Source of the DNA: a virus | Strand: one strand, 5' to 3' | DNA length: 32,960 nucleotides | Virus record (IMG/VR): IMGVR_UViG_3300045988_088052 | Part shown: positions 4,543 through 19,129 of the stretch, in pieces | Layout: each line of letters begins with the position of its first letter | How positions within the stretch are numbered: position 1 is the first letter of the stretch | Position numbers and translations under genes: made by a program | The notes under the pieces: generated by a model | Databases searched by the model: none | Told to the model about the DNA's origin: nothing | The model's input: the letters and a program-made list of their open reading frames with translations, nothing else

Positions 4543-4755
4543 TCACCCTCCAAAATTCTCAAGATAATATTGCTTGCAGTCCTGCCAACCCTTGTAATAG
4601 GCTGCCTGCTCCCGGCGTTCCTGTTCCTCCGCGGTGATCTCCGCCTGGGCCACTTCATCCAACTGATTCCACCTTTCGGCCGAAATAGCCGATAGAACCA
4701 TTATGCAGAAAGCAGCTAAGATTATCGTAACTACCGCTGCCGTCCAGTTCCTCAT
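4543..4755 (-). CDS. Hypothetical membrane-anchored protein (70 aa)
   Basis: An N-terminal hydrophobic helix (AAVVTIILAAFCIMVLSAI) is followed by a charged tail. Confidence 0.55.
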   Translation of the reverse strand: MRNWTAAVVTIILAAFCIMVLSAISAERWNQLDEVAQAEITAEEQERREQAAYYKGWQDCKQYYLENFGG

Positions 4756-5396
4756 AGCGAATCCCTCCTAAATCCGAAGAATGTCTTTATTTGCGGCAGG
4801 GTCTCCAGCCTGTGGCCATCTACCGTTATCAGCGCTGCGTAGCCCCGGCCTATCCAGCCATTGTGCCAAATCTCCCGTGCCTCGTAGTAGTCCACACTCT
4901 CCCGGCGCTCTGTTGTTTTGCCGCAAACCCTTATCTCGATGTCGATTTTCCCATCCCGGCGCTTTATCCAATTCTTGGGGCGCTTATACTTACCGGATGC
5001 CGCCGCATCCTTGTAGCATTGCTTTGAGCAGTACTTTTGTCCCGGCTGGCCGAAATAGTCCTTCCCGCAGTATTCGCATTTCTTCGGCTCGGCTTTTTTC
5101 ATACTGCTTTTGCGGGCCCGGATGCTGTCCATGGCCTTTTGGCAGTCTTTGCAATACAGCTGCCGGGTGTTGGTGCTGCCTATCGGCCCTCCGCATCTCT
5201 TGCAGGGCCGGTTGGGGTCTCTCTTGATTCCATAGCGAGACAAGATTGGGGCCACAGAGCCGTAATCAAGATCGAGAATTAAGGCAATCTCCCTGTTTGT
5301 CTTGCCCTCCCGCACCAGCTGCTCCAGGAGCTCCGGGTCGTTTGAATTAGAACAGCCGATTTTGGCGTTAGGAAAGTCTTTATCGTATGACATCAT
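4752..5396 (-). CDS. HTH plus double zinc-ribbon protein (putative DNA-binding, 214 aa)
   Basis: An HTH-like segment (GKTNREIALILDLDYGSVAPILSRYG) is followed by CKRCGG...CKDC and CEYCGK...CSKQC. Confidence 0.55.
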   Translation of the reverse strand: MMSYDKDFPNAKIGCSNSNDPELLEQLVREGKTNREIALILDLDYGSVAPILSRYGIKRDPNRPCKRCGGPIGSTNTRQLYCKDCQKAMDSIRARKSSMKKAEPKKCEYCGKDYFGQPGQKYCSKQCYKDAAASGKYKRPKNWIKRRDGKIDIEIRVCGKTTERRESVDYYEAREIWHNGWIGRGYAALITVDGHRLETLPQIKTFFGFRRDSL

Positions 5397-5541
5397 AACT
5401 CACCACCTTTTCCTGCTCGGCCGTCTCTGCGCGCCTTTTTATGGCTTTGGTGACAGCGTTCCATCGCTTGATAGATTCCTCGGCACTTTGTCCCTCAAAA
5501 AGCGGATTCTCCCGCTCTATTTCCGTTCCGTGTTTACCCAT
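5380..5541 (-). CDS. Hypothetical small protein (53 aa; below the ORF-track cut-off)
   Basis: Hand translation begins MGKHGTEIERENPLFEGQSAEESIKRWNAVTKAIKRRAETAEQEKVV. A GAGGAGG RBS lies 8 nt upstream. The ORF fills the gap between rusA and the next gene. Confidence 0.45.
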   Translation of the reverse strand: MGKHGTEIERENPLFEGQSAEESIKRWNAVTKAIKRRAETAEQEKVVSYDVIR

Positions 5542-9017: not shown

Positions 9018-9233
9018 TTAATATCTGTCTGGTTCTTCATCAAAGTACCTGTCAGCATCCGCATCGCTGGCGTCAAAACGCTTAACACAGTTTTCACAGC
9101 CAATGACCATTCCGTCCTTAATGTAAATTGTCTCGTTGATCTCGCAGCCGCACTCCGGGCAGATGTGCGGCTTATCATCGTAGTTATCCACCCAGCTCGG
9201 GATGGGCCTATCCGGGATATCGTATGGGTTCAT
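9018..9233 (-). CDS. Hypothetical zinc-ribbon protein (71 aa)
   Basis: CPECGC...CENC motifs with an acidic tail. Confidence 0.55.
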   Translation of the reverse strand: MNPYDIPDRPIPSWVDNYDDKPHICPECGCEINETIYIKDGMVIGCENCVKRFDASDADADRYFDEEPDRY

Positions 9234-10168
9234 GCTTCCACGACCTCCCCATTTTCCAGTTTGTAAAATACCCCAGGTTTTATAATCTCACCATCTACCT
9301 TTACAGCTCGCACCTCTTTAATTGGGAAAGTATCACCATTCCAGCCACACCTCTCGGTTAGGACGAGCCAGCATCCAATGGCGCCGGATGCCTTACTATC
9401 AACTCCGGTGACGATTGCAATAGACTCCTTCCCATCAACGGTGGCTGCGCTACGGTAGCCGGTGTTGGTGGCTGCACTACGGTCGCCGGTGTTGGTGGCT
9501 GCACTACAGCAGCCGGTGTTGGTGGCTGCACTACAGCAGCCGGTGTTGGTGGCTGCACTACAGCAGCCGGTGTTGGTGGCTGCGCTACGGTAGCCGGTGT
9601 TGGTGGCTGCACTACAGTCGCCGGTGTTGGTGGCTGCGCTACGGTAGCCGGTGTTGGTGGCTGCACTACGGTTGCCGGTGTTGGTGGCTGCACTACAGTC
9701 GCCGGTGTTGGTGGCTGCACTACGGTTGCCGGTGTTGGTGGCTGCACTACAGTCGCCGGTGTTGGTGGCTGCGCTACGGTAGCCGGTGTTGGTGGCTGCG
9801 CTACGGTAGCCGGTGTTGGTGGCTGCGCTATAGTTGCCAGTCTGAGTTTTGCTGCTCTCGGCTTTTTCTTTTATGTACTCAACCGCAGCTTTTACAATAC
9901 CAGCGATACCGATTTCCGCCCGGAGCTTTATTTTCGTTCCAGCTCGCTTGCTGTCACCTTCTTCTTCTTCGTCCGTCACACCATCGAGGTCAGCCACGAA
10001 AAACCGACTGTCGGCCGGTGCGTAATGGGCGAACACATCCAGCGGATACTCGCATCCATGGAAACCTTTATTGCATAGTTTCGCTTCCTCCTCCACATAT
10101 TCTTTGCCAAGATCGAATTTGAGGCCTCGGCATTTCATGTCCTTGTCGGTTCCCTTGTAGACGATCAC
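9230..10168 (-). CDS. Repeat protein: conserved N-domain, about 15 x 9-aa SAATNTGxx repeats, C-domain
   Basis: GTG start lies 7 nt after GGGGAGGG. The N-terminus (KCRGLKFDLGKEY...LCNKGFHGCEYPLDVFAHY) recurs in uncharacterised phage proteins, from memory. The central 135 aa are near-perfect nonapeptide repeats. Confidence 0.75.
   Translation of the reverse strand: MIVYKGTDKDMKCRGLKFDLGKEYVEEEAKLCNKGFHGCEYPLDVFAHYAPADSRFFVADLDGVTDEEEEGDSKRAGTKIKLRAEIGIAGIVKAAVEYIKEKAESSKTQTGNYSAATNTGYRSAATNTGYRSAATNTGDCSAATNTGNRSAATNTGDCSAATNTGNRSAATNTGYRSAATNTGDCSAATNTGYRSAATNTGCCSAATNTGCCSAATNTGCCSAATNTGDRSAATNTGYRSAATVDGKESIAIVTGVDSKASGAIGCWLVLTERCGWNGDTFPIKEVRAVKVDGEIIKPGVFYKLENGEVVEA
9434..9838. repeat. 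27-bp tandem repeat, about 15 units (coding)
   Basis: The minus-strand unit is GGC-[TAC/GAC/AAC/TGC]-[CGT/TGT]-AG[C/T]-GCAGCCACCAACACC. All other positions are invariant across units. Confidence 0.9.
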
Positions 10169-10639: not shown

Positions 10640-10865
10640 CTTCCTGTACCTCCTTCTGCGGAAGCTCCGGCAGGAATGCCCACCACTGAACTCCCAGAGC
10701 GGTTTCCACATAATCTCCGCTGACATTGAACATCTTGTGCTTTGTGCTGAACGGCAGGGTTGTGTATCTCCCCGGCATCGTCTGGCATAGATAATACCCG
10801 TCCTTGCTGGGTACGATCTCGTCCGAGTTAAACCACCGGATATGGACTCCTATTGTTGCTTCCAT
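10632..10865 (-). CDS. Hypothetical protein (77 aa)
   Basis: Internal ATG at 10865 (MEATIGVHIRWFNSDEIVPSKDGYYL...). No family recognised. Confidence 0.5.
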   Translation of the reverse strand: MEATIGVHIRWFNSDEIVPSKDGYYLCQTMPGRYTTLPFSTKHKMFNVSGDYVETALGVQWWAFLPELPQKEVQEDE

Positions 10866-11103
10866 GTTGTCCCTCCTTCTCCACCCCGTTTGGTGGGAAA
10901 AACTTCTTGACATCTTTTATGGGGATAAATAGTGCGTCGCAGACCTTATAGACTTCCTCCAATGTCCATGGGGTCTTGCAAATCATTCTGTCGCTGATCT
11001 GCTGGCGGCTCATACCTGTGCGCTTCCCAAGGCTTGTCTGGTCATGTCCGAGCTCCAGCATCAGTGCCCGCAGCCTGCGGTAGGTATCAACCTTCCTTGA
11101 CAT
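10828..11103 (-). CDS. HTH DNA-binding protein (early regulator)
   Basis: The HTH-like segment is LGHDQTSLGKRTGMSRQQISDRM. This is the second gene of the leftward early operon. Confidence 0.55.
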   Translation of the reverse strand: MSRKVDTYRRLRALMLELGHDQTSLGKRTGMSRQQISDRMICKTPWTLEEVYKVCDALFIPIKDVKKFFPPNGVEKEGQHGSNNRSPYPVV

Positions 11104-11299
11104 TGTCCTCCTCCCTTTCCTTAATAAGCTCGTCCAGAGCAGCGTTAAAGCGCTGTTCTGCGTCTTTGGGGCTGCGGCGGCCGTTTAGTATCGCACACAC
11201 ATACGCCTTTCCAACGCCGAGCTTTTCTCCAAGCTGTGCCATTGTGATTCTGTTGTTGTGCATCTTGCCGACCACATCGCCAGTCCATTGTGCAGGCAT
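11087..11299 (-). CDS. Cro-like HTH regulator (70 aa)
   Basis: The HTH-like segment is ITMAQLGEKLGVGKAYVCAILNG. This is the first gene leftward of the divergent switch region, with an AAAGGAG RBS. Confidence 0.6.
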   Translation of the reverse strand: MPAQWTGDVVGKMHNNRITMAQLGEKLGVGKAYVCAILNGRRSPKDAEQRFNAALDELIKEREEDNVKEG

Positions 11300-11317: not shown

Positions 11318-11347
11318 TTTATATTTGTGTTGCAAAAGTTTACACAA
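11318..11347 (-). promoter_or_regulatory. Second, weaker leftward promoter candidate next to the cro-like gene
   Basis: On the minus strand, TTGTGT (11347..11342) is followed by an 18-nt spacer and TATAAA (11323..11318). Confidence 0.3.
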
Positions 11348-11358
11348 AGTGTTATCAT
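11330..11358 (+). promoter_or_regulatory. Candidate rightward promoter for the CI-like gene
   Basis: TTGCAA (11330..11335) is followed by a 17-nt spacer and TATCAT (11353..11358). Confidence 0.4.
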
Positions 11359-11430
11359 GTCCTTGCGAGGGATAATGAAGTATGGCACCTTGAGTGCCCG
11401 CTTTGCGTTGCGCTTGTTGCTTATGTTTTC

Positions 11431-11459
11431 ATTATAGTGTAAACATACGCAACAGTCAA
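11431..11459 (-). promoter_or_regulatory. Consensus-like sigma-70 promoter facing left (early lytic)
   Basis: On the minus strand, TTGACT (11459..11454) is followed by a 17-nt spacer and TATAAT (11436..11431). Confidence 0.5.
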
Positions 11460-11466
11460 GGCGGAA

Positions 11467-11841
11467 ATGTACCTTTTGTTTACTTTCTACTATTTGCACA
11501 AAAAGGGTGTGTTGCGTTTGTTTTATATTAACTATGTTGCTCTTTGTAATAAAATTGGGAAATCCCCATCCGCCGTTGCTGAAGAACTGGGTTTTATGCG
11601 TTCTGTAGTTACGCGATGGAGTAAGGGAACAATTCCAAGGCAGGCAACATTGCAAAAAGTTGCCGATTATTTCGGGGTAAGCGTCGAATATCTTTTGGGC
11701 AAAGAAAAACAGCCCGCCATATTTGGCGAGCTGTCGGGGCCTAAGAAAGCTCTGATTGATTTCGTAATGCCTCTATCAGATGAGGACGCTGAGACGGTTC
11801 TGCAGATAGCGCAAATTGCACTTGCTCGCAAAACCAAGTAA
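11467..11841 (+). CDS. CI-like XRE-family HTH repressor
   Basis: INYVALCNKIGKSPSAVAEELGFMRSVVTRWSKGTIPRQATLQKVADYFGVSVEYLLG is a classic XRE HTH. The true start is probably TTG at 11512 or 11518, after AAAAAGGG, rather than the ATG at 11467. Confidence 0.75.
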   Translation: MYLLFTFYYLHKKGVLRLFYINYVALCNKIGKSPSAVAEELGFMRSVVTRWSKGTIPRQATLQKVADYFGVSVEYLLGKEKQPAIFGELSGPKKALIDFVMPLSDEDAETVLQIAQIALARKTK

Positions 11842-12083
11842 ACTGTTCTTGGGTCATTTGTGAAATTGCCTTTAAGATTTCATACTTCTTCTCCATTGTG
11901 CTCCCTCCATTTTGTCGATTATTGTAAAATAAAAATCCTTCCAAATTCAACCGATATCTGCTACAATTCTATTGTAACAGGTCGCATTATCAATCTGTAC
12001 TGCCAAATTCGGCGGTTTCGGCGCAAAATCTGTCATGTTTTTCGGGCAAAAGTGTCCGGTAACAAAAAACAGGAGATGAGTTT

Positions 12084-12494
12084 GTGAATTCTGACGATGA
12101 AAGGAATTGGGATAACTTTTTATTGGAGGTAGCTGCAAAGCGGCAGGAGCAGGGCATGACACACAAGGACTTGGCTGACAACGCCGGGACGGTCGAAAGG
12201 ACGATCTCACGGCTGCTTTCAGAGCCGACCAAAAATCCGAGCCTTTTCCTCGTAGCTTCCATCTGTCAAGCGCTGCACATATCTCTCGATAAATATTTTG
12301 TTCGGGATGTCTATAACAAAGCCGACAGCCAGAGCAGCGAAGAAATGATAGAGGTGCTGAAAGAGCAGGTGCGCCAGCGCCGGAAGCTGTCCAACACGCT
12401 TTTCGCGGTTATTTTTGTCCTGCTGGCGATGATGATTTTATACCTCGTCCTAATCGATGCAAATAACCTTAACTACGGTTTAATTCGGGATTAA
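12084..12494 (+). CDS. Membrane-anchored XRE-type HTH protein (RodZ-like architecture)
   Basis: GTG start lies 8 nt after AGGAG. The HTH is QGMTHKDLADNAGTVERTISRLLS. A charged linker follows, then one C-terminal transmembrane helix (LFAVIFVLLAMMILYLVLI). Confidence 0.65.
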   Translation: MNSDDERNWDNFLLEVAAKRQEQGMTHKDLADNAGTVERTISRLLSEPTKNPSLFLVASICQALHISLDKYFVRDVYNKADSQSSEEMIEVLKEQVRQRRKLSNTLFAVIFVLLAMMILYLVLIDANNLNYGLIRD

Positions 12495-12565
12495 GAACAG
12501 ATGTTCTTTCCAAATATAATCGTACACCGTAAAGTGTACAATAATCAGTACTGGAGGAGACGACT

Positions 12566-13114
12566 ATGGAGGAAATGGAGAAAACAACACCAGAGATCAA
12601 GCCAAAGAAGAAAAAAACGATGGTAACAGCAATAATCCTAATTGTTATCATAATTGCAATCATCGGAGCGCTTGCCGGCGGAGAAAAGGATAAAGACAAA
12701 CAAGACAATCAGCAAAATCAGCAGCAACAGCAAGAGGAGCAAAACGCAGAAGTGGATATGTCCGTAGTCGCTTCGGCCATAAAAACTGTGCTTGATAAAA
12801 ATGCGGAGGGCACAGGGATTGAGTACTCTTTAGAATACGATGACACCGGTCTTGTTATAGCAGCAAAAGCGTCAGGAGTAGCTGCAGAAGTGGCGCAAGC
12901 AAAAGCGGACGGATACGACGATACATACGAGCCATGGGTAACAATGCGTGAAAGCATGGTTAAACTGTGCAATTCGATATCTGATGCTGTTGATACGCTT
13001 GGCGCAAAGGATAAATATGTAACAGTCACAGTGGTCAACGATGCCAATGAGGACAACACCCTCTTGACGATTATGAACGGCGTGGTTGTATACGATGTAA
13101 TGGCAGAAAAATAA
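12566..13114 (+). CDS. Type-II membrane / exported protein of unknown function (182 aa)
   Basis: GGAGGAG RBS. The order is a K-rich N-terminus, a transmembrane helix (MVTAIILIVIIIAIIGALAGG), a Q/D/K-rich linker (KDKDKQDNQQNQQQQQEEQ), and a domain of about 110 aa. Confidence 0.65.
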   Translation: MEEMEKTTPEIKPKKKKTMVTAIILIVIIIAIIGALAGGEKDKDKQDNQQNQQQQQEEQNAEVDMSVVASAIKTVLDKNAEGTGIEYSLEYDDTGLVIAAKASGVAAEVAQAKADGYDDTYEPWVTMRESMVKLCNSISDAVDTLGAKDKYVTVTVVNDANEDNTLLTIMNGVVVYDVMAEK

Positions 13115-13120
13115 AAAAAC

Positions 13121-13144
13121 ACCGCCCTCGTTGCCGGGGGCGGT
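13121..13144 (-). terminator. GC-rich hairpin with its U-tract on the minus strand
   Basis: ACCGCCC (13121..13127) pairs with GGGCGGT (13138..13144). The T-run (GTTTTTTTATTTTT) follows only in the minus orientation. Confidence 0.4.
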
Positions 13145-13164: not shown

Positions 13165-14250
13165 ATGAAAGAAAGGACAAATACGGCAAAGTGGCTTGAG
13201 AAGCAGAACCGCTGGCAGATCGCCGTCCAGAAAGATGGCGTAAGAAAAACATTTACAAGCAGTCGGCCGGGAAGGGAAGGGCAGAGGGAAGCGAACCGAA
13301 AAGCAGATGACTGGCTGGCATCAGGCATCTGCGGGACGAAGCTGCACCTATCGGAGCTGCACGAAAGCTATATGGAGCAGCTTAAAATTCGGACTTCGCA
13401 ATCGAATTGGCGACCGCAGGAAAGCCGCTGGAAAACATGGATTGACCCAAGGATAGGCCACCTAAAGGCAGATGCACTTTGCGATGGGATTTTGCAAAAG
13501 GTTATCGACTATGCATACAATAACGGGAAATTGTCGAAGAAGTATCTGCAAAACATCCGTGCTGACATGGTTTCTTTCTGCAAATATTTGCGGAAAATGA
13601 AAGTAACCGGCTTTACCCCGGAAGACATAACAATTCCAAAGGGAGCCCCCGTTGGCGTTCGCAACATTTTGCAGCCGGAGGACATTGTGACACTTTTCTC
13701 CGTTGATACGACGATCTACAAGGGTAAATTGGTAAAAGACCCATATATAAATGCTTATCGCCTTGAGGTTTTGACCGGACTGCGGCCGGGGGAATTGCGC
13801 GGTATCATGCGAAACGATTTCAAACAAGGCAGATTGGAGGTAAGGCGGTCGATAAACGAGGATAATGAAATCACTACAGGCAAAAACGAAAATGCGATAC
13901 GCAGCGTTTATTTGGGCGAAATCGCAGAAGCGATTGTAAAAGATCAAGCATCCAAGTCAAACGGCCTGTATCTATTCCAAATGCCGACAACAGAAACCTA
14001 TCGCAAGTTTTTCCAAAGATATTGCAACGCAAACGGGATTCCGAAAACGACACCATACGAGCTGCGACACACTTTCGTTTCTCTTGCACAGTCCCTCCCG
14101 GAGGGATGGGTAAAGCAATTGGTCGGACACTCCAAGAGTATGGACACATTCGGGGTTTACGGTCACGCTGTGTCCGGGATGGATCGGCAAATAACCAGCG
14201 CACTTGATGGCGTGTTTACATCAATTCTTGGCCAGCAGGGAAAAAAGTGA
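13165..14250 (+). CDS. int: Tyrosine recombinase / phage integrase
   Basis: C-terminal catalytic motifs are present (GLRPGELRG..., ELRHTFVSLA, LVGHSKSMDTFGVYGH). ATG at 13165 follows GGAGGAG. Confidence 0.92.
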   Translation: MKERTNTAKWLEKQNRWQIAVQKDGVRKTFTSSRPGREGQREANRKADDWLASGICGTKLHLSELHESYMEQLKIRTSQSNWRPQESRWKTWIDPRIGHLKADALCDGILQKVIDYAYNNGKLSKKYLQNIRADMVSFCKYLRKMKVTGFTPEDITIPKGAPVGVRNILQPEDIVTLFSVDTTIYKGKLVKDPYINAYRLEVLTGLRPGELRGIMRNDFKQGRLEVRRSINEDNEITTGKNENAIRSVYLGEIAEAIVKDQASKSNGLYLFQMPTTETYRKFFQRYCNANGIPKTTPYELRHTFVSLAQSLPEGWVKQLVGHSKSMDTFGVYGHAVSGMDRQITSALDGVFTSILGQQGKK

Positions 14251-14311: not shown

Positions 14312-14316
14312 CTCGT

Positions 14317-14348
14317 TGGTGCGGAAGATGGGACTTGAACCCACACGC
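14317..14348 (-). other. tRNA 3'-end fragment (T-arm, acceptor 3' strand, ACCA): the attP core
   Basis: The reverse complement is GCGT GTGGG TTCAAGT CCCAT CTTCCGC A CCA. No D arm or anticodon arm lies upstream, so this is not a complete tRNA. Confidence 0.7.
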
Positions 14349-16326: not shown

Positions 16327-16446
16327 AGATGTTTCCTCCTTTTCTTCGGTTTCTACGCCAAGGGTTTGCAGAGCTGCTTTTAGCTGTTCCAACTCTGCTT
16401 CCTGCTTTGCTTTTACTTCTTTGGCTTTTTCGGTATAATAACCCAT
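16327..16446 (-). CDS. Hypothetical 39-aa coiled-coil peptide
   Basis: Hand translation gives MGYYTEKAKEVKAKQEAELEQLKAALQTLGVETEEKEETSNAG. Overlaps occur at both ends (TAATG upstream; the 3' end overlaps the next ATG). Confidence 0.35.
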
Positions 16447-17735
16447 TAAGTCACCCCCATAATATTAAGAGCATTAAGTGTATCAAGGATATAACTTTCG
16501 CCAGAAAGTGTTTTCCACTGATTTGTAGTTGTATCGTAAATATAAGCATTTGTGAGTTGGGCGATGTTGTTTGAATCTCCGATGTAAGCGTTTCGTAAGT
16601 AGGCTTCAAATTCGGATTTTTGACCTTTTACGACTGTGAATGGATTGTCAAAACCAAAGTCTGCTTGTAGAAATAAATGATTTTGTTGCAAAACAGTCGA
16701 TTGTGTAAATGTTTCTACTGAAGAAACTCCAGAACCACCAAGAAGATAAAATTTATCACCAACAAATCCACAGCAAGCTGATACTCTACTTGCGTGCAAT
16801 TCAGACTCAAGCACGTCAACGGCCAAGTTATCTAAATTTACACGAATTATCTTTTTTTGATACTGAGTAGAATCTATATTTCCAAAGATATATGCATAGC
16901 TACCGATTCTACAGCACCTATTTGCTTGGTTCACCATATAAGGTAGTACATTGTTATTCTGAGTATATTCTTGTGTATCGACATCAAATGTCTGTATAGA
17001 CTTCCGTGGGTCAAATGAGACTCTTGTTGTGCCTCCAAATACATAAACTTTGCTTCCTACTGCAACACAAGCTGCATTATAGGTTCCTTGAGCTTGTACT
17101 GGCATATTTCCATGATAAGTAAATTTTTCTGTTGTTACATCGAAAACTGATACAGTAGCAGAGTTTGTACTTCCAATAAATGAGCCAACAAGAAATATTT
17201 TATTGCCACTAACACAGCCACTTGAAAAATAGTATACTTGCGAACCGGGAAAGGGATAAGAAACATTTCTTAGTGTAGTTTTTTCTCCTGTTTCCAAATC
17301 AAACTTATCTACATACTCGGAATCTGCTCCAACATTATGATTAAAAGTATATATGTATTTGCCAACAGTAAATGCGAGTACATAATATTGGTAAACCAGG
17401 TCTGAATAAAAAGTCGTTTTTTCTCCCGTTGTTACATCATATCTATATATATCATTTTGCTGGCTACCTGTATATGGACAAACAGAATAAATATAATTAC
17501 CGTATGAACACATTTGCGGGTAGTCATTTCTAAGCTGAGAAAAACCAACTGTCCAATTCTTTGTCTCCGTGTATTCATTTCCATAATTCAAAACAGGACT
17601 GCATTTCACGAAGTCTGGCTTACTTACCAACGGAACCCATAGTTTGCTTGTATCTACGGGAGGGGTGGAACCAAAGTCAATGTTCAAATCAGCTCCACCA
17701 CCACCCAATGTAATAGGATTTCCTAAAATACTCAT
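16446..17735 (-). CDS. Receptor-binding tail fibre, Kelch-like beta-propeller (paralog 1)
   Basis: About six blade motifs are visible (KVYVFGGTT, KFYLLGGSG, YAYIFGN, KIFLVGS, YIYTF, YIYSV). The N- and C-termini are shared with paralog 2. The ATG at 17735 gives MSILGNPI, parallel to paralog 2. The ORF track used GTG at 17741. Confidence 0.7.
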   Translation of the reverse strand: MSILGNPITLGGGGADLNIDFGSTPPVDTSKLWVPLVSKPDFVKCSPVLNYGNEYTETKNWTVGFSQLRNDYPQMCSYGNYIYSVCPYTGSQQNDIYRYDVTTGEKTTFYSDLVYQYYVLAFTVGKYIYTFNHNVGADSEYVDKFDLETGEKTTLRNVSYPFPGSQVYYFSSGCVSGNKIFLVGSFIGSTNSATVSVFDVTTEKFTYHGNMPVQAQGTYNAACVAVGSKVYVFGGTTRVSFDPRKSIQTFDVDTQEYTQNNNVLPYMVNQANRCCRIGSYAYIFGNIDSTQYQKKIIRVNLDNLAVDVLESELHASRVSACCGFVGDKFYLLGGSGVSSVETFTQSTVLQQNHLFLQADFGFDNPFTVVKGQKSEFEAYLRNAYIGDSNNIAQLTNAYIYDTTTNQWKTLSGESYILDTLNALNIMGVT

Positions 17736-17759
17736 ATTCACCCTTTCCGGGGTGAGTAT

Positions 17760-19129
17760 TTAGTTCACCCCTAATATATTTAGTGCGTTCTGCATATCCG
17801 CTACATAGCTTTCACCGGAGAGGGATTTCCATTTGAGGTCTTTGCTGTCGTAGAGATATGCGTTTGTTAATTGTGCTATATTGTTACTGTCCCCAAGATA
17901 GGCATTGATTACCTTAACCTTTAAGTCTGTATCTTTGGATTTAAGCGCCGTCCACAGTCCATCGTAGCCATAGTCTTCTTGCAAGAACAGGTGGTTGTTA
18001 GTAAGGGGAGTTTCAACGACAAATTTCGCTGTATATGGAACTTTTGCAACCATATAACTCCCACTTTTCGATGCATTATTAGGAGCGCATATTATATACT
18101 TTGCTTCGTTTATTTTATAAAATAATGCCCATATACTAACTTGCGGAAGAACAGTAGAAAGCTGCGTAAATTGATTTGTAGCTGTGTCAAATTTATAAAT
18201 AGTATTTATTTGCGAATCGGGAATGTCATTATTAAAATCTGTTGAAGAGCCACCAAAACAATAAATGTATCTGCCATAAGATATGCAGGTCATCCCAGCA
18301 ACATTAACAGGATATGTTGTTACAGATACACATGTATCATTTGAAATATCATAAGCATACACACCATTTTTAGGAGAATATTGTTGTGCTCCTCCCATTA
18401 TGTATATCTTCGAACCAACAACACATGTCGTAAACATCTTTCCCGGTATTGGAATTTTTGCATTTGATATCAATGCAGAGTTCGTATTTAAGTCAACTAT
18501 TTTAATTGAGTTGGTTGTGTTAGCGTAAGATATGCGTATTCCACCAAACAGGTACAATTTATTATTGGCGTATTCCATCGCCATATAGTTAATTTCTGAA
18601 GCGCCTAACGAAGAGTCGAAAGGCAGAGAACAAATTTTTTCTGCTGTTTTTGTAGTTAAATTGCTTTTAATTATAGAATTACTATAACCCGTTCCCGAAA
18701 TTGATGTGGAATTTATCGCACAATAAACAATGTTCCCGTGTTGACAAAAAGAATAGCGGCCTGCGTTTGATGAAGACCCATCGTGACCTAAAACAGAATT
18801 CATTGTTACTTGGTCAACAACATTCGTTTCAATATTCAATCTTTTTAATGCTGTACCGGAATACCCCCAATACAAATAATTTTCATACTGAAATGAAGAA
18901 GACCAGCTGCCACGTGCGCTTGCAAATTCATTGCCAGTTCCAATCTCAGAATAATTACTTAAATACTCACTTCCAAATGCCAATTCTGGCTTACACTCAA
19001 CAGCATCAGGCTTTTTCTCCAAAGGCACCCATAGTTTAGTTGTGTCTGTCGGAGGGGTAGAACCGTAATCAATGTTGAGTTTTACCCCCCCCCGTTGGTA
19101 ATTATTGGATTGCCATAGATGATGCTCAT
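17760..19129 (-). pseudogene. Receptor-binding tail fibre, Kelch-like beta-propeller (paralog 2), interrupted by a G9 tract
   Basis: The ATG at 19129 overlaps the upstream stop (ATGA) and encodes MSIIYGNPIITNGGG, then a stop. The rest (VKLNIDYGSTPPTDTTKLWVPLEKKPD..., 17760..19085) is in the -1 frame. One extra G or a -1 slip restores a 455-aa protein colinear with paralog 1. Confidence 0.7.
19085..19093. repeat. Homopolymer G9 (C9 on the plus strand) at the frame break
   Basis: Counted directly: C at 19085..19093. Confidence 0.95.

Follow-up and report, generated by a model that had tools for sequence, protein, structure and literature searches.

An exchangeable cargo slot beside a putative tail-anchored regulator in the lysogeny region of a temperate gut phage

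Which genes does a temperate phage keep between its repressor gene and its integrase gene, and do they belong together? This question is raised by a stretch of phage DNA of 32,960 nucleotides (nt), IMG/VR record IMGVR_UViG_3300045988_088052, which was analyzed as a whole and is called the window in the following. Two open reading frames, ORF1 and ORF2, are situated there between a CI-like repressor gene and the gene of a tyrosine integrase (int). ORF1 codes for an XRE-type helix-turn-helix (HTH) protein with a predicted C-terminal transmembrane helix (TM), and ORF2 for a predicted membrane protein with an extracytoplasmic domain. The original prediction had suggested that the two genes may be a new kind of pair, in which a sensor or tether in the membrane has a DNA-binding protein as its output, and had regarded them as a candidate for superinfection exclusion (Sie) or defence. 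To our knowledge, hardly any experimental work has been done on the phages of gut Clostridia, for which very few exclusion systems have been described. Morons are independent, exchangeable accessory genes of phages, for example HK97 gp15. By sequence comparison with related loci, the locus is best read as a moron slot with an accessory regulator; the new elements would be the domain family of ORF2 and the putative tail-anchored regulator.

Both ORFs were found at the positions predicted, in the same orientation as the CI-like gene and int (Table 1). Each has a strong ribosome binding site (RBS), again in line with the prediction: AGGAG (12071-12075) is located 8 nt before the GTG start of ORF1 and GGAGGAG (12553-12559) 6 nt before the ATG start of ORF2. 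Pairwise ratios of nonsynonymous to synonymous substitutions (dN/dS) of 0.07-0.14 for ORF1 and 0.12-0.24 for ORF2 indicate purifying selection on both genes, and 48 and 56 homologous clusters (90% identity), respectively, are found in public data. Because of the low dN/dS values and the dozens of homologous clusters, both are, by these measures, real genes.

The interval between ORF1 and int is a cargo slot

Among the viral contigs of IMG/VR, 79 encode ORF1 at 88-98% identity, and 73 of these contain the complete interval between ORF1 and the recombinase gene, hereafter the slot. ORF2 is the first gene after ORF1 in 34 of the 73 complete slots, and an unrelated gene takes this place in the other 39. 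Most often the unrelated gene codes for a 183-aa lipoprotein (16 slots; E-value of 14 in a BLASTP comparison with ORF2) or for a protein with a TM and a Cys-rich part (13 slots), and the remaining 10 slots start with genes for multi-TM, His-rich secreted or larger TM proteins. Besides ORF2, at least seven unrelated lipoprotein or membrane-protein genes occupy the slot. In one locus (L051) a gene of the abortive infection (Abi) family Abi_2 (PF07751, 2.9e-52; 4613-5485) is present together with two membrane-protein genes. The two genes of the window are thus not conserved as a pair, and the proposed sensor or tether with a DNA-binding output is not supported. The expectation that the repressor-integrase interval is a site for prophage cargo was borne out by the unrelated membrane-protein genes and the Abi_2 gene, and by a second phage lineage carrying a gene of the ORF2 family in this interval (see below).

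The recombinase at the far end of the slot varies as well. Window-type integrase alleles of 98% and about 70% identity, a different tyrosine integrase and, in L010, a serine recombinase were found. Near-identical ORF2 alleles (98-100%) stand beside ORF1 alleles of 86-94% and int alleles of 98% or 70%. Since near-identical ORF2 is joined to divergent ORF1 and int alleles, ORF2 has moved between backgrounds by mosaic exchange. The leader, i.e. the 70 nt following the ORF1 stop codon, is conserved before every type of cargo, and in more than 70 loci the divergence begins at the RBS of the cargo gene. Because the leader is conserved and the cargo differs, the slot behaves as a fixed cassette site which is served by signals of the phage backbone. 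Judged by the comparison of these loci, the interval between ORF1 and int is an exchangeable cargo slot.

One further contig with this arrangement is deposited under the name of a different organism. The 23.6 kb contig NZ_JAHXLB010000019.1 ("Helicobacter pylori strain SHZY19 contig_19"; L125) contains ORF1, an ORF2 C-terminal domain of 100% identity and an integrase of the 70% type. It is probably a contaminant of the H. pylori assembly, because the tRNA-Leu attachment site and the prophage context of a gut bacterium of about 59% G+C content (GC) fit H. pylori poorly.

ORF1 and ORF2 occur apart from each other

All 36 close ORF2 alleles are preceded by ORF1. This linkage arises only because all of these alleles belong to one phage lineage. 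More distant relatives were found in other surroundings. A lipoprotein with 56% identity to ORF2, P0055, is encoded by a lone gene in a host chromosome (L005, 8001-8627; also in L006-L009). Its gene has a GC of 0.40, compared to 0.57-0.67 for the neighbouring genes listed, and is located 40 nt from the 3' end of a tRNA-Leu gene, the attB site of the phage; in L007 the adjacent tRNA gene is tRNA-Leu(TAG) and not tRNA-Leu(GAG). A strong hairpin with a T tract follows downstream. Neither int nor an ORF1 homologue was found at this host locus. The gene looks like retained or domesticated phage cargo. Two other origins were considered. A capture from the host by aberrant excision was rejected because of the phage-like GC (0.40 vs. 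about 0.60) and because such an excision would have put the gene on the opposite side of attP. For a small remnant bounded by att sites, a second att copy was looked for at the locus and none was found.

In phages of the L196 type, with an integrase of about 50% identity and genomes of about 41 kb, a gene of the ORF2 family whose product has a three-TM anchor directly follows the CI-like gene, and ORF1 is absent. This is the second lineage with a family member in the repressor-integrase interval; a scan of viral sequences with a narrower alignment of the ORF2 family returned the L196-type phages only. A family relative of 36% identity adjoins a terminase gene in L126, a metagenome-assembled genome of the Oscillospiraceae.

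ORF1, in turn, is found next to many different cargo genes, as stated above, and a distant relative of it occurs with none. In L194, a phage of a different lineage, a 121-aa tail-anchored XRE protein is encoded between the CI-like gene and int, and no cargo gene is present. This protein is matched by the ORF1 profile with an E-value of 2e-8 over the HTH, the linker and the TM. The co-occurrence analysis that had been suggested for the pair therefore speaks against it, with ORF1 beside many cargos or none and ORF2 relatives in the absence of ORF1. By these comparisons ORF1 and ORF2 are two independent and functionally separable genes of the lysogeny region and no matched two-part defence system.

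ORF2 carries a predicted extracytoplasmic domain of a large family

The TM segments of both proteins were assigned by hydropathy (Kyte-Doolittle) and the positive-inside rule. ORF2 is predicted to consist of a Lys-rich stub (residues 1-18), a TM (about residues 19-38; nt 12620-12679), a linker rich in Q, D and K (39-60) and an extracytoplasmic alpha/beta domain of about 120 aa (61-182; nt 12746-13111). This anatomy agrees with the one proposed originally. The sequence KPKKKK precedes the hydrophobic window (residues 19-37, Kyte-Doolittle mean 3.16). No Cys follows the helix, so a lipobox is not present and the helix is of the uncleaved signal-anchor type.

With an alignment of 47 family members, AlphaFold (AF2) gave a confident model of the C-terminal domain, with a mean predicted local distance difference test score (pLDDT) of 95.9 and a predicted TM-score (pTM) of 0.87. 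The elements of the modelled domain follow each other in the order helix-strand-strand-helix-helix-strand-strand-strand. Conserved features are a near-invariant W124, a loop N-D-x-N-x-D-N between two strands and the C-terminal motif NGxVxYD. By eye, this loop resembles those that bind cations or sugars.

A profile of about 115 residues was built for the domain family with the protein of the window as seed. It matched 244 clusters (50% identity) at E<=1e-10 and, with the limit relaxed to E<=1e-3, 686. In nearly all cases a membrane anchor precedes the domain, but the kind of anchor differs. Among the best approximately 150 members, 71 possess a TM or signal helix, 40 a Zn-ribbon plus TM and 29 a lipobox; in the ORF2 homologues P0055 and P0105 the lipobox reads LVAC. 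From these varied anchor types it follows that the conservation in the family sits, as far as the sequences tell, in the outside domain and not in the anchor. The predicted outside location is itself supported, because homologues use a lipobox or a Zn-ribbon plus TM. Four of 148 family members also carry Lipoprotein_Ltp repeats (PF07553), and few other extracytoplasmic partner domains were found in the family.

No family in Pfam, NCBIfam or PHROG covers the ORF2 domain, and the C-terminal domain alone found no match in PHROG at E<=0.1. The whole protein matched the PHROG families 4980 and 8545, annotated as superinfection exclusion, with an E-value of 4e-6; this match comprises residues 4-74 only, i.e. 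the stub, the TM and the low-complexity linker, and was rejected. In the library scans with both proteins, the matches to FliL, spanin, DUF2140 and gp16.7-like proteins were likewise all situated on TM or low-complexity segments and were discarded. With PADLOC-DB 2.0, matches of ORF2 were confined to residues 26-112 at the TM/linker end and no system was called. Thus the earlier statement that no known Sie, Abi or defence family can be recognized was upheld, also for ORF1, for which PADLOC gave generic HTH matches only (HTH_VI with 2.4e-6, RmrA and CapH).

Structure comparisons were not informative on function, neither with the PDB nor with BFVD. A sequence search of the PDB with the domain profile gave nothing significant. 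In a Foldseek search of the PDB the best match was the secreted protein PA3611, which is a weak one (E-value 2e-3, TM-score 0.46), followed by non-significant matches to KH/S3-like folds and to the ring-building motif of type III secretion systems. In BFVD the domain matched phage proteins without name or annotated as DUF5067 with TM-scores up to 0.64.

ORF1 is a putative tail-anchored XRE protein

Residues 17-69 of ORF1 (nt 12132-12290) match Pfam HTH_3 (PF01381) with an E-value of 5.5e-8 and 33.2 bits (cut-off 23), and the solved structures nearest by sequence in a profile search of the PDB are C.BclI, SinR and the 434 repressor. A 19-residue hydrophobic window (residues 106-124) has a Kyte-Doolittle mean of 3.19. 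ORF1 is predicted to be tail-anchored with a cytoplasmic HTH, because RQRRK precedes the TM and only 11 residues follow it. The HTH match and the hydropathy thus corroborate the XRE-type HTH and the single C-terminal TM that had been described for this protein. In the AF2 model (pLDDT 70) the helices of the HTH are followed by a hinge without order (74-81) and then by a single uninterrupted helix (82-135). This long helix contains, next to the membrane, an amphipathic segment and RQRRK, then the TM and finally the conserved tail LIDAxNLxYGLIR.

In the family alignment the C-terminal 50 residues are the best conserved part of ORF1, above the HTH. They are nearly unchanged in a homologue of 48% identity, and a related tail, D...G-[LW]-[IV]-R, is kept in the L194 protein, which is only 29% identical. 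The conservation of TM and tail suggests a specific membrane partner. The C-terminal half shows weak resemblance to small phage membrane proteins (phrog_5503, E-value 0.002). A search for distant relatives with the membrane module alone returned fragments of the ORF1 family only, and a pattern search with a broader alignment returned the ORF1 lineage again and one relative of 47% identity.

Among the loci that keep ORF1 at 88-98% identity, the CI-like gene is 38 to 100% identical to the allele of the window; it is the immunity-determining and highly variable gene of the lysogeny module. Because the CI-like gene, the cargo and the recombinase all vary across the loci, ORF1 is by comparison the most stable gene of the module. 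The best reading of these alignments is that ORF1 is a lineage-conserved, tail-anchored regulator. With modest confidence we regard it as a membrane-tethered transcription factor whose TM and tail may contact a membrane partner or a protease.

Small proteins with a C-terminal TM were also seen in phages with an integrase of about 50% identity. L187 (2539-2877) and L202 (806-1129) each encode a protein of about 110 aa whose only TM is C-terminal. The gene directly follows the CI-like gene in L187, whereas in L202 it is located upstream of the repressor gene at a distance of about 1 kb. By eye, their N-terminal parts had been taken for winged-helix domains; Pfam gave no support for this and the assignment was dropped. 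Tail-anchored small proteins may be a recurring feature of lysogeny modules of this kind.

Promoter-like leader, palindromes and a small divergent ORF

The leader in front of the cargo gene comprises a promoter-like element, TTAAGA-18-TATAAT, which reached 10 of 12 in the promoter scan, and the palindrome GTACAC-N6-GTGTAC just after the -10 box. The palindrome is unique in the window (0.01 expected). From its sequence, the leader may well act as the promoter of the cargo gene.

A second palindrome, CTGCTACAAT-tct-ATTGTAACAG, is located on the other side of ORF1 and overlaps candidate -10 boxes on both strands. It is near-invariant in an alignment of eight loci, is found in nearly all loci whatever the CI allele, and can be considered a candidate operator. 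Of the motif TACA-N7/8-TGTA, four copies are present in the window (0.45 expected), and two of the four are the palindromes flanking ORF1. Both differ from the repeats TGTTGC...GCAACA between the CI-like and the Cro-like gene. Because the flanking palindromes are constant while the CI alleles change, the protein that binds them must be a conserved one. ORF1 is the obvious candidate; a conserved 91-aa HTH protein encoded on the opposite strand (10828-11103, -) is a candidate as well.

A further palindrome is present at the start of the leader. The perfect 6-4-6 palindrome AAGAAC-AGAT-GTTCTT (12489-12504) extends over the ORF1 stop codon and the -35 box of the putative cargo promoter. In 97-nt leader strings of about 84 related loci it is perfect in most and has one or two substitutions in about 22.

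Divergently oriented to ORF1, a small ORF starts 188 nt upstream of it and extends, in antisense orientation, over the 3' end of the CI-like gene. Essentially all related loci (L012-L090, L011) have such an ORF, 44-51 aa long and preceded by a strong RBS, at this fixed distance of 188 nt. There are at least four divergent alleles, in which the reading frame and a common motif M-[TS]-x-E-Q are kept. The small ORF was missed by the gene callers and matched no family.

Comparison with known systems

The lipoprotein Ltp of the Streptococcus thermophilus phage TP-J34 is encoded in the lysogeny module, is situated outside the membrane and blocks DNA injection; it is tethered by a flexible linker to the outer face of the cytoplasmic membrane (PMC3952083), as is predicted for ORF2. 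The genes of both proteins are part of a lysogeny module next to int and are co-oriented with the repressor gene, and as stated above an ORF2-type domain and Ltp repeats are combined in one polypeptide in four family members. In contrast to Ltp, ORF2 has no match to PF07553 and possesses a signal-anchor helix instead of a lipobox. Its predicted fold is alpha/beta, and no Ltp structure was among the fold matches in the PDB. Ltp is built of helical repeats. Other comparable exclusion genes of lysogeny modules are Sie2009 and orf203 of Sfi21. By these comparisons ORF2 resembles surface proteins of the Ltp or Sie2009 type in position and topology, and differs from Ltp in each feature of sequence and predicted fold that was compared.

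Several traits of morons are seen in ORF2. It codes for a membrane protein, phages that are otherwise near-identical differ in whether they carry it or another gene at this place, it stands between a promoter-like element and a hairpin, and its GC is slightly low, with 0.44 compared to a genome mean of 0.50. However, its promoter-like element and leader are part of the conserved backbone and do not travel with the cargo, and the hairpin is no clear terminator, as it has no clear T tract and was not called by the terminator scan.

ORF1 had been described as RodZ-like in topology. This is correct for the topology, an HTH combined with one TM, and for nothing beyond it, since ORF1 has a tail of 11 residues and no large outside domain. 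RodZ (HTH_25, TM and periplasmic domain) and BcrR of Enterococcus faecalis share with ORF1 an N-terminal cytoplasmic HTH of the XRE type followed by membrane anchoring; RodZ has a large outside domain and BcrR four TM helices. ORF1 matches Pfam HTH_3, and neither HTH_25 nor DUF4115, the RodZ domains, matched it in Pfam. Unlike RodZ and BcrR it is encoded by a phage, in the lysogeny module, and the sequence relation to both is that of a generic HTH only.

The layout around ORF1 resembles the immI region of P22, where Mnt and Arc control the antirepressor Ant: there is a second repressor-like gene, here of the HTH type, outside CI/Cro, a divergent small gene and a palindrome in between. The resemblance is one of layout, and there is no homology to the ORF1 region. 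Mnt and Arc are soluble ribbon-helix-helix proteins.

Possible functions of ORF1 and ORF2

We consider that ORF2 is most likely a moron of the lysogeny module and, by analogy, a surface exclusion or conversion factor. It would sit in the exchangeable slot, be served by the promoter-like leader of the backbone, and use its flexible linker to present the compact alpha/beta domain at the outer face of the cytoplasmic membrane. From there it could act on incoming phages by blocking the entry of their DNA or by masking a receptor, as analogy to Ltp and Sie2009 suggests; a surface conversion of the lysogen would be a less specific alternative. ORF2 should work without ORF1. ORF1 would be a core gene of the lineage whose XRE domain is held at the inner face of the membrane by the C-terminal tail anchor. 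It may act on the palindromes flanking its own gene and in this way control itself, the transcript of cargo and int and/or the small divergent ORF. That both parts apply together, ORF2 as a moron or surface factor of the cargo slot and ORF1 as a membrane-tethered core regulator, has in our estimate a probability of about 55%. That ORF2 is a surface factor carried by the phage, most probably directed against superinfecting phages, is suggested by the position between repressor and integrase in two lineages, the slot shared with Abi_2 and other surface proteins, the horizontal spread of one allele and the copy retained at attB.

Several observations weigh against this explanation. Orientation and promoter-like motifs are the only indications of expression in the lysogen. 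No protein for which exclusion has been demonstrated is similar to the ORF2 domain, whose best matches in the PDB (PA3611) and in BFVD are weak or unannotated. As for ORF1, no precedent for a membrane- or tail-anchored XRE or HTH regulator in a lysogeny module was found in the searched literature, the loop of the GTACAC repeat varies between loci, as would the 5' hairpin of an RNA, and the flanking palindromes could be bound by the second conserved HTH protein (10828-11103). Finally, the overall dN/dS shows no arms-race signature, and the ORF2 family is found mostly in a chromosomal or unclear context and could have a housekeeping role in the envelope. Expression in the lysogen, the exclusion activity of ORF2, the DNA targets of ORF1 and any signal sensed by ORF1 are inferred, in contrast to the gene structure, the exchange of cargo and the independence of the two genes, which the sequences show.

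The last two points lead to the strongest alternative, according to which ORF2 is not directed against phages but is a lysogenic-conversion or envelope protein that benefits the host, for example in adhesion, in binding of the cell wall or of cations, or in niche fitness. The size of the family, most of which lies outside a recognizable phage context, would fit such a role, as would the lone copy retained in the host chromosome, the purifying selection on the gene, the D-x-N-x-D-N loop and the fact that the weak structural match is a secreted protein. On the other hand, two phage lineages have a member of the family between repressor and integrase, ORF2 has its slot in common with Abi_2, four members are fused to Ltp repeats, and near-identical alleles have spread across mosaic phage backgrounds. 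These observations fit a role directed against phages at least as well. A purely host-directed role is possible, in our view, though not probable, and the two roles are not mutually exclusive. If ORF2 turned out to be no more than an envelope protein, and ORF1 an autoregulator of the usual kind, the locus would be an ordinary moron plus an accessory regulator.

A more far-reaching interpretation appears rather unlikely to us at present. ORF1 would represent a new class of tail-anchored XRE repressors, conserved among heteroimmune phages, which couple an event at the membrane to the transcription of the cargo-int operon and of the small antisense gene. The slot would be a library of new exclusion proteins for phages of gut Clostridia, and the 686 clusters of the ORF2 domain family would be one new type among them. 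The membrane event may be a signal from the envelope, a regulated proteolysis or the contact with a phage that is entering the cell. If such a class exists, a second, membrane-wired layer would be added to the lysis-lysogeny or exclusion decision.

It is still less likely that ORF1 itself is protective, either by capturing or blocking the DNA of related incoming phages, heteroimmune ones included, with a DNA-binding domain held at the inner membrane face, or as an Abi device whose tail anchor would oligomerize and damage the membrane once the HTH encounters a cue from a phage. ORF1 is conserved across differing CI alleles, as heteroimmune exclusion would require, its TM and tail are the most constrained part, the C-terminal half weakly matches phrog_5503, and an ORF1-like protein stands alone beside int in L194. 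Yet there is no precedent for such a protein, the similarity to defence proteins does not go beyond generic HTH matches, XRE domains bind specific operators and not arbitrary incoming DNA, and the conserved promoter palindromes that flank the gene are more in keeping with an ordinary transcription factor.

A single two-component system, in which ORF2 senses or tethers outside the cell and signals from TM to TM to the DNA-binding ORF1, is very improbable, and the comparison of loci has largely refuted it. In its favour, the two genes are neighbours in the same orientation, both proteins are single-pass, ORF1 precedes all 36 close ORF2 alleles in phage contigs and its TM is unusually conserved, as expected for a helix-helix contact. 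Against it, ORF1 is equally conserved where the cargo is one of at least seven unrelated proteins, and also in a lineage that has none; ORF2 relatives with a lipid anchor or other TMs offer no conserved partner surface, and relatives in hosts and other phages manage without ORF1.

The slot, recognizable by ORF1 and the leader on the left and int on the right, offers a practical way to mine candidate exclusion and conversion genes, as an Abi gene and the genes of at least eight different proteins of the surface or membrane have passed through it. The ORF2 domain represents a large unannotated family of membrane-anchored proteins, which can now be linked to Ltp-type proteins and for which a structural model of high confidence is available. 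In ORF1 the membrane segment is more conserved than the DNA-binding domain, an architecture not described for lysogeny modules in the literature searched. If ORF1 regulates lysogeny from the membrane, this would be a new input to phage decision-making.

The phage genome and the layout of its lysogeny region

The window is a complete genome in phage form, roughly 33 kb in size, of a temperate siphovirus. It contains genes for terminase, portal, capsid and tape measure, for Kelch-type fibre proteins and for an Amidase_3 lysin with an adjacent gene upstream. In the lysogeny region the genes on the + strand follow each other in the order CI-like gene, ORF1, ORF2 and int. The CI-like gene is divergent to the Cro-like gene and to the early genes, and the TGTTGC...GCAACA repeats in the spacer between CI and Cro (11328-11523) correspond to the inverted repeats I1, I3 and I5. 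No match to the Pfam domain Peptidase_S24 was found in the CI-like protein or in ORF1. Phage_integrase (Pfam) was called on homologues of the integrase. The attP core was determined by comparing the window with the integrated form L001 and the empty or remnant site L005; from this comparison the phage integrates into the tRNA-Leu(GAG) gene of a high-GC (about 59%) gut bacterium. The coordinates of the features are compiled in Table 1.

Table 1. Features of the lysogeny region and their coordinates in the window
Feature	Position	Strand	Description
Cro-like gene	11087-11299	-	divergent to CI-like gene
CI-like repressor	11467..11841	+	XRE HTH; matches Pfam HTH_3 and PHROG repressor families
Small divergent ORF	11741..11896	-	51 aa, begins MEKKYEILKAISQMTQEQF; RBS GGAGGGAG
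Palindrome CTGCTACAAT-tct-ATTGTAACAG	11958..11980	.	between ORF1 and the small divergent ORF; inverted repeat I23
ORF1	12084..12494	+	predicted tail-anchored XRE-family HTH protein, 136 aa, GTG start
ORF1 TM	12393-12458	+	about residues 104-125; predicted by hydropathy
Cargo leader	12491..12542	+	spacer between ORF1 and ORF2; promoter-like TTAAGA-18-TATAAT (12491-12520), then GTACAC-N6-GTGTAC (12522-12539)
ORF2	12566..13114	+	predicted N-in/C-out single-pass membrane protein, 182 aa, ATG start
GC-rich hairpin ACCGCCC...GGGCGGT	13121..13144	+	directly after the ORF2 stop codon; read from the sequence
Tyrosine integrase (int)	13165..14250	+	361 aa from ATG at 13165; phrog_1 integrase, 2e-37
attP core	14316..14347	-	32 nt identical to the 3' end of host tRNA-Leu(GAG)

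The region of ORF1 and ORF2 had been described as richer in AT than the structural genes. With a GC of 0.44-0.47 this is true in comparison to most of the genome (0.47-0.57), but not to the Kelch-type tail-fibre genes at 16.5-19 kb, which are lower still (0.35-0.38). These genes (16446-19028, -) code for two Kelch-repeat beta-propeller proteins of 431 and 422 aa in tail-fibre position, and against the genome GC of 0.50 they look like recently exchanged receptor-binding genes.

In the early region a DUF7666 protein of 312 aa is encoded (9230-10168, -). Its gene contains a tandem repeat (9440-9830) of 14.5 copies of a 27-nt unit, which is translated into the nine-residue unit SAATNTG-x-R. The homologues in sister phages have 195-249 aa, and the copy number of the repeat appears to be variable. 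The phage also carries a gene for tRNA-Thr(TGT) (667-741, -).

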